Shown here: positions 1 to 6,828 of the stretch, piece by piece | How positions within the stretch are numbered: the first letter of the stretch is position 1 | Layout: every line of letters starts with the position of its first letter | Source: Candidatus Margulisiibacteriota bacterium | GTDB lineage: Bacteria > Margulisbacteria > WOR-1 > O2-12-FULL-45-9 | Assembly (NCBI GenBank): GCA_034723395.1 | Contig: JAYEOW010000041.1 | Location: forward strand, 1 to 10,041 | Direction of reading: 5' to 3' | Length of the DNA: 10,041 bases | Program-made: the position numbers and the translations under genes | Notes under the pieces: model-generated | The model's input: only the letters and a program-made list of their open reading frames with translations | Database searches by the model: none | Told to the model about the DNA's origin: nothing

Positions 1-1528
<1,528 letters not shown>

Positions 1529-1532
<4 letters not shown>

Positions 1533-2032
1533 TCTTCCGATATTTTAAAAGCGACCGGTATCTCAAATAAACTCGCGATCGCATTCCCGCCTTGGCTGGC
1601 CGGAGAAAAGCTCCATTGCGAAACCGCTGCTTTGGCCGACTCATCAAACTCGGCCAACCCTGCAGATTGTTTAACCTCTACTCTCTCCGGCTTTCCCGCC
1701 ATCCCGATGTACACCGACAAGATGGTTACCCCTTCAAGATCCTGTTCCAGCGCAGATATCGGATATTTCGGTAAAACCGAATAAGAAACCGTAGGCGGAA
1801 CAATTGGCAAAGGGGTCACGATCTTTGATTGAGGCATAGGCGCAGGAATGACCTTTGCCTGCGCTTTGGTGTTAACCATCGGCTTTGCGACCGTTTTTGT
1901 TACCACTAATTCCTCCCCCATAAAAACCGGCGCATCTTTTATCACCGGCTTGGATATCATCGTCGATCCAACAAACAGACCAACCGTCAGGATCATCCCT
2001 ATACTTATATAAGTTAAAGTTTTACTATTCAT
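1529..2032 (-). CDS. tonB: TonB-family protein (N-terminal hydrophobic anchor, Pro-rich linker, TonB C-terminal domain)
   Basis: Hydrophobic residues ~6-26, Pro-rich linker (PAPMPQ...PLPIVPP), then PKYPxxA...EGVTILSVYIGxxGxPxxVEVxQSAG...FDESAKAAVSQWSFSPA...IPVAF, which matches the TonB_C pattern. SD AGGAG upstream. Immediately downstream of a TonB-dependent receptor. Confidence 0.85.
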
Positions 2033-2046
2033 TGTTTTCTCCTATT

Positions 2047-2082
2047 TTATTTCTTAATTGATTAATTGTTAATTCTTAATTG
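2047..2082. repeat. Heptamer tandem repeat (5 units, (C/G)AATTAA on the minus strand) spanning the receptor stop codon
   Basis: Minus strand: CAATTAA GAATTAA CAATTAA T CAATTAA GAAATAA. Confidence 0.6.
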
Positions 2083-3864
2083 AACAGATATATTATACCT
2101 TCTCCCCGGCATCGGGTAAACATCTGAAAACCCGTAGGATTCGGCATAACTCTCGCCAAATAGGTTTTCAACTTCACCTTTAATTGTATAGATGCCAAAA
2201 TCTTTCGATAAGGATAGATCGACAACAGTATAACTCGGCAGTTGAGTGCTATTTACAAGATTGGTATAGCGCTCCCCTACATATCTTACAACTATATTAG
2301 AATCAAACTTATCCGGATCCCTATATTTCAACCCGGCATTCAACTGGTTCTGCGGAGCATAGTCGAGAAAATTACCTGAACCGGCATCCTTTGCCAGCTG
2401 GTAGCCAAAATTAATGAACGTTTTTAAATACTTCGCGATTTCTTTCTCATACTCAAACTCGATCCCTTGGATATCGGCGTCGCTGATATTGGTCGGCGTC
2501 CAGAAGGCATCGATCGTCGAAGTAGAGGTATTCGTCCAGCGGATCATATCTTTTATCTGATTCACATAATAACTTAACCGGGCCGAACTTTTATGGCTAA
2601 GCTTCCGCTCCAAGGTAATATCAAAGCTCTGGGAAGTTTCCGGCTTTAGGTTCGGATTCCCCTCGGTGGTAACTACTCCCGACGGCCAACCCGGCTCAGT
2701 CAACCTCGACCAATAGAGATCATCGATCGTTGGCGCTTTAAAAGATTTTCCCCAGGAAGTTTTTAGTAAAGTATCATGGCGCAAGTTAAAGACAAATCCT
2801 ACTCGCGGATTAAAATGGCTGCCATAAGAAGAAGTTATATCCTCACGCGCCCCAATTACCATCGGTCCAAGCTCCGCTTGGGCATAAACCGCTTTATTGG
2901 TCAAGTCATGGTTGCCGGAATTCGTGCTCCGGCTGTTATCATTTCTGATCTCCAATCCAGCGACATAATCTCCGATGGATTCCTGAATATTCAGATTTGT
3001 ACTGGTCGTTTTGTGGGTTGAAAGAATGGCAAAAGTCGGATTTTCGTATTTTTGGTCCAAGGTCGCCTGCGAAAGGGTCGCTTTTAATCCTGCCTTATCC
3101 GCCTTGTATACTAGATCGTAGAACATATTCTTATCGCTCTGTCTCGCTTGCGGAGTAAGGAAATCGAGCGATCCAGGAGAACCCTTATCAGTATTGCATT
3201 TCTTGATCCCCGCCTCAAAATACCCATTCATCAAGCGGAGATTGAGATCTTGTGCCCTGTAAGCGCTGTTAGCGCGGAATCCGTCGGAGTCAATCGCCGC
3301 CGCCGAGAAAAAGTAGTTCGGCCCGGAGCCTGCGACAGACAAATTCCGCGTCGCATACTCTCCATAACCGGCAGAAACGACAACCTCCGGCTTTTCGGTC
3401 GCTTTTCTGGTGATAATATTGATAACCCCGCCAACAGCATCCGCCCCGTAAAGCGAGGAAAGCGGCGCTTTTACGATTTCGATCCGCTCCACATCGGTTA
3501 ACAAAATATCTCCAAGGTCAAAAGTCCCTAGCGAAGGTGAATTTATCCGGTTCCCGTTCAACAGCACCAATACTTGCTGTGAATTTGATCCACGGAGCCG
3601 TGCTGAGATCTGAGAACTTAAACCACCGTTTGCCTTAACCGAAACTCCCGGAACCGTTCGAATAATATCGCCTATTTTAGCGGCGGTTGAATCTTCAATA
3701 TCTTCTCGAGTAATAACTGTAGTATCCCAGGGAATAGAAGATTTTAGGCGGGGAACACGCAGCGCGGTAACGACGATCTCCTCACCATAGAAACGCGGAA
3801 TGTCAGCAAAAGAACCAGCGGAAAAAACGATCAAACCAACCAATAAAATTATTAACTTTTTCAT
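2062..3864 (-). CDS. TonB-dependent outer-membrane receptor, BtuB/CirA-like (600 aa; substrate unknown)
   Basis: Start moved from 3927 to ATG 3864: SD AAGGAG upstream and a signal peptide MKKLIILLVGLIVFSAGSFA|D. TonB box EEIVVTA. Plug motifs (VITREDI, PGVSV, RGS...VLVLLNG, ERIEIVKAPxSSLYGADAVGGVINIIT). Barrel motifs FKAPT, GNPNLKPE, VENLF, PGRRY. Confidence 0.93.
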   Translation of the reverse strand: MKKLIILLVGLIVFSAGSFADIPRFYGEEIVVTALRVPRLKSSIPWDTTVITREDIEDSTAAKIGDIIRTVPGVSVKANGGLSSQISARLRGSNSQQVLVLLNGNRINSPSLGTFDLGDILLTDVERIEIVKAPLSSLYGADAVGGVINIITRKATEKPEVVVSAGYGEYATRNLSVAGSGPNYFFSAAAIDSDGFRANSAYRAQDLNLRLMNGYFEAGIKKCNTDKGSPGSLDFLTPQARQSDKNMFYDLVYKADKAGLKATLSQATLDQKYENPTFAILSTHKTTSTNLNIQESIGDYVAGLEIRNDNSRSTNSGNHDLTNKAVYAQAELGPMVIGAREDITSSYGSHFNPRVGFVFNLRHDTLLKTSWGKSFKAPTIDDLYWSRLTEPGWPSGVVTTEGNPNLKPETSQSFDITLERKLSHKSSARLSYYVNQIKDMIRWTNTSTSTIDAFWTPTNISDADIQGIEFEYEKEIAKYLKTFINFGYQLAKDAGSGNFLDYAPQNQLNAGLKYRDPDKFDSNIVVRYVGERYTNLVNSTQLPSYTVVDLSLSKDFGIYTIKGEVENLFGESYAESYGFSDVYPMPGRRYNISVQLRINN

Positions 3865-3986
3865 CTCTATACTCCTTTTTATTATGGAATATAGAGTCTC
3901 GGGAAACTCTACTTTTTTCCAGACCAAGGCAGGGTTAGAACCTGCTAATTAACTATTCCTCTCCCGTTGAGTAACTTGACCGGAAA
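3865..3986 (-). promoter_or_regulatory. Candidate cis-regulatory RNA: tRNA-like domain plus alternative SD-sequestering hairpins
   Basis: Hand-folded. CUCUAUAUUCC (3896-3886) pairs 11 bp with GGAGUAUAGAG (3875-3865, covering the SD). A competing 9-bp stem forms between 3912-3904 and 3899-3891. A tRNA-like acceptor/D/T arrangement lies at 3981-3921. Confidence 0.5.
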
Positions 3987-4641
3987 CCACGAGGACAATC
4001 TCGCCTCGCACCTTTTTATCACTTATTTTTTCCAGCACATCACCTGCCTTCCCCCTGATTATCTCCTCAAACTTCTTGGTCATCTCCCGGCAGACAGCAA
4101 CTTCGCGATCTCCTAAAATCTCTTTAACCTCTACCAAAGTTTTGACTAAACGAAAAGGAGATTCGTAGATTATAATCGTCCGCGGATCGTCTTGCAAGCT
4201 TCTTAAAACTTTTCGCTTCTTGCCCGGTTTCTTAGGAAGGAATCCTTCAAAGACAAAACGCTCAGTCGGTAGACCGGAAACAGCCAGCGCAGAGATTGCA
4301 GCCGAAGCTCCGGGGATCGGCTCAACCTTAATCCCCGCCCCTACTGCGTTGCGAACCAATTCATATCCTGGGTCAGAGATTGCCGGCATTCCGGAATCCG
4401 AAACTAATGCAATATTTTGTCCTTGCTTAATTAATTCGATGAGCTTGGGCGTCTTAGCCTTAATGTTGAACTTGTGATAAGAGGTTAATTCTGTGTTAAT
4501 TTGATATTTATTTAGCAGGATCTTGGTTGTTCGGGTATCTTCCGCGGCAATCAGATCAACTTCCGAAAGTATGCGGACTGCGCGGAAAGTAATATCTTCC
4601 AGATTGCCGATCGGGGTCGCGACTATGAATAGCGTACCCAT
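3949..4641 (-). CDS. rsmI: 16S rRNA (cytidine1402-2'-O)-methyltransferase
   Basis: MGTLFIVATPIGNLEDITFRA, AAEDTR, LVSDSGMPAISDPG, PIPGASA, FEGFLP, IYESPFRL, REMTKKFEE, RGEIVLVV. TAATG overlap with the bactofilin stop. Confidence 0.96.
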   Translation of the reverse strand: MGTLFIVATPIGNLEDITFRAVRILSEVDLIAAEDTRTTKILLNKYQINTELTSYHKFNIKAKTPKLIELIKQGQNIALVSDSGMPAISDPGYELVRNAVGAGIKVEPIPGASAAISALAVSGLPTERFVFEGFLPKKPGKKRKVLRSLQDDPRTIIIYESPFRLVKTLVEVKEILGDREVAVCREMTKKFEEIIRGKAGDVLEKISDKKVRGEIVLVVSGQVTQRERNS

Positions 4642-5051
4642 TAAGCAATGGGAAGTTTATCTTCGATAATGATCTCTTCTTCTATTTCTGATTTCCCTGT
4701 TTCAACACGGACCCTTCCACGGTAAGAAGATCCCTCTTCAATGCTGATCCTGCCGCCGGTTAGGTCGCCATTGACCCTTCCGCTCTTGGTTATTTCCAAG
4801 CTCTGTAAAGCGGTAATATTGCCGTTTACCTTACCCGAAACAACTACGTGTGAGCCCTCAACATCACCCAGGATCTTGCTGCCGCGCCCGATAATAACTT
4901 CACCTTCCGACGATAACTTACCTTCAAATCCACCATTAACGCTTACTGCTCCGGGAGTAACTAATTCCCCTTTAAATTTCGCTCTTTCACCAATCACCGA
5001 ATCAACTGCTCCGTGAATTACCGATTTTTTTTCTCCGCCAAACATACCCAT
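4641..5051 (-). CDS. Bactofilin (polymer-forming cytoskeletal protein, CcmA family)
   Basis: Beta-helix repeat pattern SVIG...FKGEL...VNGGFEGKL...VIIG...GDV...VVVSGKVNGNITA...LEITKSGRVNGDL...ISIEEG...GRV. Strong SD GGAGGAGG. Downstream of an M23 peptidase. Confidence 0.92.
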   Translation of the reverse strand: MGMFGGEKKSVIHGAVDSVIGERAKFKGELVTPGAVSVNGGFEGKLSSEGEVIIGRGSKILGDVEGSHVVVSGKVNGNITALQSLEITKSGRVNGDLTGGRISIEEGSSYRGRVRVETGKSEIEEEIIIEDKLPIA

Positions 5052-5052
5052 T

Positions 5053-5967
5053 TTACCTCCTCCAGATTTTACTAGCTGTTAATATATTCAAATTCAGGTA
5101 AGAAACCGGATTAATCGCTTTATTCGCTTTACGGACCTCATAGTGCAGATGGGGCCCGGTCGTATATCCGGTATTCCCCACATAACAAATAATCTGGCCC
5201 TTTTTAACCTTTTGGCCTGCCTTTACCGCATATCTTGAACTATGGGCATAAAGGGTAGAAATCCCGTGATCATGCCTAACCATCACTGTTTTCCCGTAAC
5301 CTTTTCTCCAGCCGGCAAAACTAACTAGCCCGTCCGCAGTAGACCGGATCGGCGCCCCATAACCTCCAGAGATATCGATCCCGGAGTGAAATCCTCTCCA
5401 GGGATAAATGCGGTATCCAAAACGCGAAACAATCCTTCCATTAAGCGGCCAGCGTGAAGGGGTGGAGGCATATCGCTGCCTTACCCTGCTCACCCAACCC
5501 TTTAGCTCGTCGAGACTTTTCTGCCTTTCCGTGATCCGCATACCCGCCACTTTAAACTCATAAGATACCTTTTCGGCCGAAGTTTTTGGATTGTTTTCTT
5601 TTATCGCGGTAGATAATTTGAGCTTCCCTTTCCAATTTTTCATCCCCAGCAAACTTCTTAGATGATTGTCTTCCCTGACCAACTCTTCGATTGCCTCATT
5701 TACTTTCCTTGTCTTTACGCCAAATCCGTCAATTACCCTCTGTTGTTCCTGGTTTTGGGCGATCGTATTCGCGTAATGGACTAACCGTCTCGAAACCAGC
5801 GTAGAATAAACGATCGAAGATCCAACCACCGTAGTGGAAAAAAGGATCATCGCAATCATGGTATAAATAGCAAATACAGGGATTTTGATACCAATAGTAC
5901 GCGCCCCCGGATCATGGGGGATCATCATGAAGGTATAATGCTTACGCTTCTTAGATTTCCTCTGCAT
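5053..5967 (-). CDS. M23-family metallo-endopeptidase (TM helix, coiled coil, LytM domain)
   Basis: N-terminal basic tail, TM ~31-57, coiled-coil-like region, then PSRWPLNG.I.SRFGYR, HSGID (HxxxD), GYGK.V...H, YAH, VGNTGYTTGPHLHYEV (HxH). Confidence 0.93.
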   Translation of the reverse strand: MQRKSKKRKHYTFMMIPHDPGARTIGIKIPVFAIYTMIAMILFSTTVVGSSIVYSTLVSRRLVHYANTIAQNQEQQRVIDGFGVKTRKVNEAIEELVREDNHLRSLLGMKNWKGKLKLSTAIKENNPKTSAEKVSYEFKVAGMRITERQKSLDELKGWVSRVRQRYASTPSRWPLNGRIVSRFGYRIYPWRGFHSGIDISGGYGAPIRSTADGLVSFAGWRKGYGKTVMVRHDHGISTLYAHSSRYAVKAGQKVKKGQIICYVGNTGYTTGPHLHYEVRKANKAINPVSYLNLNILTASKIWRR

Positions 5968-5976
5968 TATTACTTA

Positions 5977-6006
5977 AGTATATCAGTAAAATTATTATCT
6001 AGTCAA
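5977..6006 (-). promoter_or_regulatory. Sigma70-type promoter for the M23-bactofilin-rsmI genes
   Basis: TTGACT (6006-6001), 18-nt spacer, TATACT (5982-5977) with extended TGn; 9 nt to ATG 5967; no SD. Confidence 0.65.
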
Positions 6007-6603
6007 CTAGTACAAGCCCTTCGGTATTCCAGGGATCTTGGGCATTTTGAATTTTTTATACCCCGCTGGAAGTTCAAAAACCGAAGCCGGCTGCTTCCCT
6101 CTTTTGATATTCTTATACTCTACCATCCAGGACCCATCCGCCGTTTTTGTTCTAACCGGGATCATATCTTTTGACAGCCATTGATAAACCGTCTCTGATT
6201 TACCGCCGCTTTTATAGGTGATCTTATACTTATCACACATGACCCCATTTACTTTTCCTGACCCAACTTTTTTCCGGTTCATCTCCCCTGGCATTTTTGT
6301 TGTTAACCCCCTGGACTTATCCTCGGTATACTTCATCTCCATATACGTTTTCTGCCCCGGCATCAAACTCCAAACTGTCTTTTTGTCCGCGCGGATAATC
6401 GAGGTTGCTTTTTTACCGTAAACCGTCATATCCGTCCGCCATTTATTATTGGCCACATAAATTTTCCCTCGCTGGGTCATTCCTCCAAACTTCATTACCA
6501 TATCTGCCGAAAATTCTTTCGTGGCACTGGGGCCCGCGCAACCGAGGATCGAAACCATCACAAAAACCGAAACCAATGAAAAACCGATCATCTTCCTAAA
6601 CAT
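6007..6603 (-). CDS. Predicted lipoprotein, DUF4412 / LolA-like fold
   Basis: Basic N-terminus, hydrophobic core and lipobox ILG|C22. Motifs GKIYV...WRTDM, IIRADK...WSLMP..KTYMEM, GSGKVNGVMCDKY, SVFELPAGYKK resemble DUF4412 proteins. SD AAGGAGGT. Confidence 0.7.
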   Translation of the reverse strand: MFRKMIGFSLVSVFVMVSILGCAGPSATKEFSADMVMKFGGMTQRGKIYVANNKWRTDMTVYGKKATSIIRADKKTVWSLMPGQKTYMEMKYTEDKSRGLTTKMPGEMNRKKVGSGKVNGVMCDKYKITYKSGGKSETVYQWLSKDMIPVRTKTADGSWMVEYKNIKRGKQPASVFELPAGYKKFKMPKIPGIPKGLY

Positions 6604-6643
6604 ATTTTTACCTCCTTAATAAATGGTCGGGGTCCCGAAAAAA

Positions 6644-6717
6644 TCGGAGCGACTGGATTCGAACCAGCGACCTCACGCTCCCGAAGCGTGCGCTCTACCA
6701 AGCTAAGCTACGCTCCG
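6644..6717 (-). tRNA. tRNA-Pro(CGG), CCA not encoded
   Basis: CGGAGCG-TA-GCTT AGCTTGGTA GAGC-G-CACGC TTCGGGA GCGTG-AGGTC-GCTGG TTCGAAT CCAGT-CGCTCCG-A. Full cloverleaf, C1-G72, A73. Confidence 0.96.
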
Positions 6718-6751
6718 ATTTTCCTCGGGACTACCCCCCGTTAATCAAAAA

Positions 6752-6827
6752 TCGGGACGGCGGGATTTGAACCCACGATCTCTACCACCCCAAGGTAGCG
6801 CCTTAGACCAAGCTGGGCCACGTCCCG
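6752..6827 (-). tRNA. tRNA-Pro(GGG), CCA not encoded
   Basis: CGGGACG-TG-GCCC AGCTTGGTCTA AGGC-G-CTACC TTGGGGT GGTAG-AGATC-GTGGG TTCAAAT CCCGC-CGTCCCG-A. Separated from the plsY stop by 1 nt. Confidence 0.96.
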
Positions 6828-6828
6828 A

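Follow-up and report, generated by a model that had tools for sequence, protein, structure and literature searches.

A TonB protein of Saganbacteria (WOR-1) carries a near-copy of the extended Ton box of its neighboring receptor

The window analyzed here is a stretch of 10,041 nucleotides from contig JAYEOW010000041.1 of a Candidatus Margulisiibacteriota genome (class Saganbacteria, also called WOR-1), and it encodes a short TonB-like protein whose membrane-proximal segment resembles the Ton box of the receptor encoded beside it. A single run of genes on the minus strand comprises an M23 peptidase, a bactofilin, rsmI, the TonB-dependent receptor, tonB, queA and the start of tgt. All features described below lie on this strand, and positions are those of the window unless a contig or locus is named. 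The tonB-like gene (1529-2032) encodes a product of 167 amino acids with a Pfam TonB_C match, and its stop overlaps the start of queA by 4 nt (1529-1532). The arrangement M23-bactofilin-rsmI-receptor-tonB-queA(-tgt), which spans positions 534-6603 of the window, recurs on a single strand throughout the taxonomic order to which the genome belongs (loci L032-L055). In 22 of 25 loci of the order the gene immediately before tonB is that of the receptor; the remaining three are cut by contig ends or have the receptor further away. Orthologs of tonB are present in 25 of the 30 other genomes of the order and in 52 of the 65 genomes of the class.

The TonB protein is built of an N-terminal hydrophobic segment, a short conserved motif, a flexible linker and a C-terminal domain (CTD). 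The CTD (residues 76-167; 1532-1807), which includes a conserved PLPIVPP lead-in, matches Pfam TonB_C (PF03544) over residues 88-164 with 63.6 bits against a cut-off of 24.6, and is modeled by AlphaFold2 with block values of the predicted local distance difference test (pLDDT) of 86-98. The model has the TonB CTD fold: VIA-align superposes 86 residues on the Neisseria TonB CTD (9dc4_T) with a Z-score of 12.5 and a root-mean-square deviation of 1.7 Å, and gives a Z-score of 10.5 for the TonB chain of the BtuB:TonB complex (2gsk_B). The preceding linker of about 30 residues (46-75; 1808-1897) is variable, contains several prolines and consists of poorly conserved alignment columns; the stalk has low pLDDT, with block means of 46-70 in both AlphaFold2 models. 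The N-terminal segment (residues ~5-27; 1952-2020) has 23 uncharged residues, is modeled as a helix over residues 5-25, and is probably a membrane anchor rather than a cleaved signal peptide. A TonB_C domain with the CTD fold, together with a single predicted N-terminal anchor and a flexible stalk, is what is expected of a TonB family member. The motif, hereafter the self-box, comprises residues 33-45 (DAPVFMGEELVVT; 1898-1936). It begins 6 residues past the anchor, has the core P35-x-F37-x-G39-E40-E41-(V/I/L)42-x-V44, matches the box of the receptor, is conserved, and sits where canonical TonB proteins have their D-box, or motor box. Several nuclear magnetic resonance entries superpose on the model from residue 32-38 onward; the superpositions give only the first and last aligned residues, the ends of those chains are floppy (PMC6118199), and no inference was drawn from them.

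The receptor (2062-3864) is 600 amino acids long, counted from MKKL, and matches the Pfam Plug and barrel families with 89.2 and 151.2 bits, respectively. Its score against the NCBIfam equivalog model for the B12 receptor, TIGR01779 (TonB-B12), is 236.7 bits, below the cut-off of 599.7, and it is therefore called BtuB-like only. Each of five out of five high-quality relatives has exactly one Plug match, so that it is the sole such receptor there. Residues 1-20 (MKKLIILLVGLIVFSAGSFA, followed by D; 3805-3864) are a predicted signal peptide, with a putative cleavage site between SFA and D judged from the sequence. The extended Ton box follows right after the predicted signal-peptidase site, at residues 21-33 (DIPRFYGEEIVVT; 3766-3804), and consists of a lineage-specific P-R-F-Y-G and then a standard Ton box of the form acidic-V-V-V-T-A.

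A gapless alignment of TonB residues 33-45 with receptor residues 21-33 gives 9 identities in 13 residues and 22 in 39 nucleotides, and seven of the nine identical residues are specified by different codons. The amino acid match and the codon count had both been reported in the original prediction for this DNA, and both were reproduced. None of 300 shuffles of TonB reached 9 identities against the whole receptor, the best 13-mers having 5 to 7; against the first 60 residues of the receptor none of 1000 shuffles did so, the maximum of 8 occurring once. A six-frame scan of the 1.68-Mb genome, covering frames open for at least 60 amino acids, found the pattern P.F.GEE[VIL].[VI] at exactly two sites, namely the window TonB and its receptor, while the shorter GEE[VIL]xV occurs 10 times. 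The second TonB/receptor pair of the genome, encoded beside ExbB and ExbD on contig C10, has no such likeness; its best 13-mer has 5 identities and lies within the hydrophobic leaders.

The original prediction hinged on finding the motif in orthologous TonB proteins as well, and there it is found. P35 is retained by 22 of the 26 order TonBs and F37 by 25; G39 is found in 22, E40 in 21, E41 in 19, a V, I or L at position 42 in 23, and V44 in 18. The motif is conserved over 25 genera. It forms an island of conservation within TonB, with the commonest residue present on average in 17 of 26 sequences over residues 35-44 versus 9.4 of 26 over residues 45-72 of the linker. Because the motif is conserved in the orthologs, the proposal that selection has acted on it at the protein level is supported. 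In 23 receptors of the order, the residues aligned to the TonB positions are kept as follows: P in 21, F in 23, G in 21, E41 in 22, V44 in 22 and T45 in 23. The 9 of 13 identities of the window pair are the highest among the 23 pairs of the order, for which the mean is 5.3. Across the class the receptor copy stays near P-x-F-Y-G-E-E-V-V-V-T-A, and a looser core of the TonB copy, P-x-F..E-hydrophobic-x-V, extends over the class, 38 of 52 TonBs having P.F.

Searching a representative protein library with the TonB profile returned 108,516 matches at E<=0.001. The best 150 include 44 short single-domain proteins, three of which have P.F.GEE. The best matches (P0001, P0002, P0006 and others) are long and carry TonB_C domains in tandem, 4 to 9 per protein; one of 1080 amino acids has 9 matched stretches. 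Within the class, loci L093-L102 (families f7 and f8) encode a longer TonB of ~200-210 amino acids, in which the motif takes the form V-P-E-F-T-I-A-G-E-L-D-V with one added residue and the stalk has a second conserved block, K-D-A-V-K-V-G-x-F-M-S-L-A-K; four of these genomes encode MotA-like proteins and no ExbD.

The extension of the receptor box goes with the window-type TonB. Of 45 receptors encoded next to such a TonB, 35 have the P.F.G lead-in (34 counted by script, and that of locus L100 by eye). Four genomes (G013, G142, G143 and G144, with completeness of 86, 95, 90 and 51, respectively) have a syntenic receptor after rsmI and no window-type TonB, and all four receptors are without P.F.G; G142 and G143 have ExbBD instead of the window-type TonB. 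Short boxes that lack P.F.G are also found in ten more distant TonB-dependent receptors, which come from other lineages or from other parts of the class. At the tonB site of G013, between receptor and queA (locus L133, 2385-3403), there are unrelated small open reading frames, and tblastn detected no TonB remnant there (best E 0.12). The box of the G013 receptor has drifted to D-F-I-Y-Y-Q-D-E-I-V-V-T-A.

The genes of the motor that energizes canonical TonB are largely missing from this lineage. A Pfam search for ExbD (PF02472) matched 1 of the 31 genomes of the order, the sole match being on contig C10 of the window's own genome, and 3 of the 65 genomes of the class, with 0 of 60 in families f1-f12; for the whole phylum the count is 72 of 146. 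MotA_ExbB (PF01618) matched 1 of 31 order genomes and 7 of 65 class genomes, and in four of these seven the matches are MotA-like proteins of ~255-260 amino acids with no ExbD in the genome. Five near-complete relatives, among them a single-contig genome with 98% completeness, were searched with the TolR model at E<=1 without a credible match. ExbD had been considered as the binder of the self-box and was dropped, since it is missing from the lineage. The TonB anchor is also atypical in lacking the histidine by which canonical TonB contacts ExbB: none of the 52 class orthologs has a histidine inside it, and four have H as the last residue of the segment. Fourteen TonBs from other classes of the phylum, 11 of them encoded beside ExbB-ExbD, all have S-x3-H in the anchor together with an ordinary D-box-like strand, and none has P.F.GEE. 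Two traits of a canonical ExbBD-coupled TonB are therefore not found here, namely the histidine of the S-H-L-S anchor and a lineage-wide complement of ExbB/ExbD (or TolQ/TolR). TonB_C matched 27 order genomes, once each in 26 of them and twice in the window's genome alone, so that the protein's own CTD is the only known Ton-box binder present in those 26.

The second TonB_C match of the window's genome (G000) belongs to a canonical Ton system at ~2497-9191 of contig C10, found within the order only in this genome. Besides ExbD and a short ExbB (145 amino acids), the cluster encodes a NikR-like protein, the second TonB, another receptor and Znu-like ABC transporter components. In this TonB the anchor contains the histidine, and the D-box-like strand is ordinary. 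Its ExbB and ExbD are 55-62% identical to those of G142 and G143, which belong to another family of the class, and this identity suggests that they were acquired by transfer.

Mimics of the Ton box exist outside receptors, and group B colicins carry them. These colicins and the TolB N-terminus on TolA domain III (6S3W) both present a foreign strand motif at the strand-addition site of a TonB/TolA-type domain, and they differ from the present case in that the mimic is borne by a toxin or a partner protein and not by TonB itself. The self-box shares with Ton boxes (structures 2GSK and 2GRX; PMC6118199) an acidic-hydrophobic-x-V core and a predicted tendency to form a strand, and in both every second position contributes to a conserved face. 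The window receptor carries a standard Ton box, E-E-I-V-V-T-A, and E-E-L-V-V-T-K of the self-box fits the consensus acidic-x-hydrophobic-x-V-T-A at 6 of 7 positions, although T45 is kept in just 2 of the 26 order TonBs. A Ton box is normally the N-terminus of a receptor plug, whereas the self-box lies in TonB beside the inner membrane and mostly lacks the T-A end. Strand beta6 of E. coli TonB in the nuclear magnetic resonance structure 1XX3 (Peacock et al. 2005) is an internal strand that covers the Ton-box-binding strand and must be exchanged for the Ton box, as described in PMC6118199, and is in that respect a precedent for self-capping and strand exchange. It differs in being the protein's own C-terminal tail, not Ton-box-like, in a motor-coupled TonB, whereas the self-box lies ~30 residues upstream of the CTD and mimics the receptor box.

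The closest counterpart by position is the D-box, a conserved strand just past the anchor of canonical TonB that is captured by the ExbD dimer through beta-strand recruitment with a Kd of 19 uM (Loll et al. 2024, PMC10907165). Its prediction had started from the analogy with the Ton box, as that paper relates. Under the name of motor box it is reported in all TonBs by a 2025 survey of periplasmic force transducers in Mol Biol Evol (PMC12204202). The self-box occupies the same slot just after the anchor as the strand described in these two papers. The likeness ends there: the binder of a D-box is the ExbD dimer, and ExbD is missing from the genomes of these relatives; the D-box, as published (PMC10907165), alternates hydrophobic and hydrophilic residues between flanking prolines (ISVTMVT in E. 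coli), whereas the self-box reads P-x-F-x-G-E-E-V-x-V; and the self-box copies the Ton box of the cognate receptor, the lineage-specific extension included. The original prediction had noted that canonical TonB is not known to contain such a box. The match is real; canonical TonB already has a beta-strand handle, the D-box, at that position. Among the 15 of 132 papers listed by a literature search, none reports, judged by title or abstract, a TonB that carries a copy of its own ligand or Ton box, and literature searches found nothing linking TonB with Saganbacteria or Margulisbacteria.

Structure prediction was applied to self-binding. With an alignment of 77 sequences, AlphaFold2 modeled beta-strands at residues 36-38 and 42-45 (block pLDDT 81 and 71, against 52-57 for the linker), and the predicted template modeling score (pTM) rose to 0.65 from 0.56 with 26 sequences. 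A complex prediction of the CTD (residues 62-167) with the TonB segment 28-60 scored 0.46 (runs 0.45-0.47), against 0.01 for the best of three controls; contacts agree between runs to at least 92%, and the pLDDT of the partner is at least 59. In the benchmark, 116 of 157 solved complexes attain the mark for this score, as do 2 of 215 mismatched pairs; only 18 of the 157 pass with scores of 0.60 or less, a range that includes both passing mismatches, and the benchmark counts apply roughly, since a custom alignment was used for the prediction. The original prediction had offered an autoinhibitory decoy or a self-oligomerization site as functions of the self-box. Either fits the data, and the computed evidence (0.46 against 0.01, and strands with 77 sequences) is weak.

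The reading that we favor, at a little below an even chance, is that the D-box slot of this TonB now holds a Ton-box mimic bound by the protein's own CTD, and that the self-box parks, caps or competes in a TonB that has no motor. It is favored because the only known strand-capturing domain able to reach both the self-box, 6 residues from the inner membrane, and the N-terminus of the receptor is the CTD itself, on its ~30-residue stalk. Such a TonB, encoded in Saganbacteria together with a single BtuB-like receptor, would work without the ExbB-ExbD motor, and its membrane-proximal slot would present a copy of the extended box of that receptor. The CTD would capture this copy by beta-strand addition, within or between molecules, and would so have two alternative and nearly identical handles: the self-box at the inner membrane, on which it would be parked or capped, and the receptor box, on which it would be engaged. 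The receptor box, which is the fuller of the two (V-V-V-T-A, and R or T at position 36), may outcompete the self-box once it is exposed. The motif with its conservation in both proteins, its position, and the lack of ExbB/ExbD and of the anchor histidine are observed; we infer that the CTD is the binder, that the binding amounts to parking or competition, and that the receptor may be gated without the proton-motive force.

A number of observations weigh against this reading. The two copies differ systematically, position 36 being V or I in TonB and R or T in the receptor, and T45-A46, (near-)invariant in receptors, is not kept in TonB, where T45 is the rarity noted above and position 46 is mostly K, Q or R; the constraint on the two copies is therefore not identical. 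The TonB copy loosens beyond the window's order: of the 52 class TonBs, 21 have P.F.G and 13 have P.F.GEE, and variants include P-T-F-V-Y-E-E-V. Co-variation of the two boxes, for which the original prediction had proposed to look, was not found: in 45 class pairs the mean identity of cognate boxes is 4.53 versus 4.52 for shuffled pairings (2397 of 5000 permutations gave at least the observed value), and the BLOSUM score of 19.44 versus 19.26 likewise carries no signal. The boxes of locus L083 (LVFSSTETVV in TonB, PTFRSSEYVV in the receptor) look co-changed by eye, and this is a single case. The co-occurrence of the window-type TonB and P.F.G amounts to about two independent lineages or events, and genomes G012 and G115 have a P.F.G receptor and no TonB match, the contig ending at the expected tonB site in both. 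The incompleteness of metagenome-assembled genomes can hide genes, though 37 of the class genomes are at least 90% complete. In the models, the motif is coil with pLDDT ~46-51 when AlphaFold2 is given the 26-sequence alignment; the strands obtained with 77 sequences could form a hairpin of their own around G-E-E and not pair with the CTD, as the fold output comes without contacts; and the weak pass of the complex may reflect likeness to solved structures of TonB with Ton boxes. A passive TonB, finally, cannot drive uphill transport, and the reading gives no account of how uptake would be energized.

The main rival, which we regard as rather unlikely, is that the D-box has been kept or re-tasked as a handle that serves, in place of ExbD, some other partner in the inner membrane or periplasm, which might be an unrecognized motor, and that the likeness to the Ton box reflects the needs of strand capture and convergence. 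The position of the self-box is exactly that of the D-box as given in PMC10907165, which also has the D-box predicted from the Ton box and describes both as short strands with alternating hydrophobic residues. Any groove that captures strands could accommodate the conserved face of the TonB motif, in which positions 42 and 44 are kept and 43 varies. The boxes show no co-variation, and four class genomes encode MotA-like proteins without ExbD. Against this rival, no ExbD or TolR was found in 62 of the 65 class genomes and no MotA, ExbB or TolQ in 58, so that a D-box in its usual role fails for lack of its partner; the anchor histidine is also missing. Strand propensity, moreover, leaves the shared P-x-F-x-G-E-E, which occurs nowhere else in the genome, unexplained; elsewhere in the phylum, TonBs linked to a motor carry an ordinary D-box and lack the motif; and the motif misfits the published hydrophobic/hydrophilic pattern. 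An improbable alternative is that the two motifs share descent, the N-terminus of TonB having been acquired by recombination with the 5' end of the receptor gene (leader and Ton box), or that both are read by a common third party, such as an export, sorting or chaperone factor or a protease. Both motifs lie ~1 to 10 residues from an N-terminal hydrophobic export segment, loss of the SHLS-type histidine would be expected if the N-terminus of TonB had been replaced, and many ortholog anchors contain small-x-small residues that we would read as a possible peptidase site. Yet only 22 of 39 nucleotides agree and 7 of 9 codons differ, so that no recent DNA transfer is visible, and only continued selection would keep the motif conserved class-wide. 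There is no known candidate for the reader, the two hydrophobic segments are unlike, with 20 versus 32 residues before the motif, and the uncharged 23-residue segment of TonB looks like an anchor and not like a cleaved leader.

That the resemblance has no specific function and is a by-product of acidic, valine-rich strands appears very improbable. E-E-V-x-V is near the commonest Ton-box consensus, acidic and valine-rich strands are common, and the genome has GEE[VIL]xV at the 10 sites mentioned above; but chance fails because of the shuffle statistics (0 of 1300 shuffles in all reach the observed identity) and the conservation, as the genome contains the full motif nowhere outside this pair, and the motif is the sole conserved island of the TonB stalk and is kept over the 25 genera of the order. 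The relay put forward in the original prediction, in which a second, motor-driven TonB grips the self-box and the window TonB in turn pulls the receptor, is scarcely credible. The window's genome does have a suitable driver, the contig C10 TonB that is encoded with ExbB-ExbD, but within the order that system is confined to this genome, as the TonB_C and ExbD counts show, and yet the motif is conserved order-wide; the class genomes G142 and G143, which do have ExbBD, lack the window-type TonB and the P.F.G of the receptor. The relay is unsupported because elsewhere in the order no second TonB_C match was found that could drive it.

The receptor-tonB operon is preceded by a conserved mRNA leader (3865-3925) in which a hairpin buries the Shine-Dalgarno sequence. 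The leader has a minimum free energy of -17.7 kcal/mol and a z-score of -3.54, and 0 of 200 shuffles fold as well. The hairpin of 11 bp (CUCUAUAUUCC...GGAGUAUAGAG) covers the Shine-Dalgarno sequence just before the start codon, and its CUCU is contested by another hairpin further upstream (UAGAGU-UUCCCGAG-ACUCUA). The consensus 10-bp helix and a CCCG loop are invariant in 18 of 18 aligned leaders from loci L032-L055. No Rfam family matches at the gathering score; at E<=10 there is only a chance match to STnc400 with 12.6 bits. The leader looks like a riboswitch or thermosensor platform, and the operon continues into queA and tgt. Just past the rsmI stop, a hairpin resembling a tRNA T-arm (GCAGG-UUCUAAC-CCUGC; 3929-3945) is found order-wide, with compensatory changes from CG to UA in four sequences and from AU to GC in two, and upstream of it the 3' end of rsmI resembles a tRNA D-arm. 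A tRNA-like reading of the rsmI 3' end was rejected: ARAGORN and Rfam find no tRNA, the fold has a z-score of 0.30 with 117 of 200 shuffles as good, and compensatory changes occur only in the T-arm-like hairpin. Two tRNA-Pro genes (6643-6718 and 6751-6828; anticodons CGG and GGG) lie between a DUF4412 gene and an open reading frame for a membrane protein.

TonB-dependent uptake is thought to need the ExbB-ExbD motor, the anchor histidine of TonB and a D-box gripped by ExbD. What makes the present case unusual is that the lineage lacks ExbB/ExbD: in more than 50 genomes a receptor-TonB pair is under selection without motor, anchor histidine or a D-box of the published pattern, the D-box slot being taken by a copy of the receptor's own Ton box. 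Since the organisms are uncultured, the value of the finding lies in biochemistry with recombinant parts. If the CTD binds the self-box, the pair would be a natural test case for receptor gating without the proton-motive force, for the regulation of strand exchange at the Ton-box site and for the relation between the two strand handles of TonB. The self-box would then also be a natural competitor peptide for the Ton-box site, which PMC10907165 discusses as an antibacterial target. For the class as a whole it is possible, if doubtful, that the receptor is run without a proton-driven motor, that the CTD toggles between the receptor box and a self-box that has taken the place of the former motor handle, so that TonB acts as a self-latching passive gate or tether and not as a force transducer, and that the D-box and the Ton box are interchangeable handles, perhaps of common origin.

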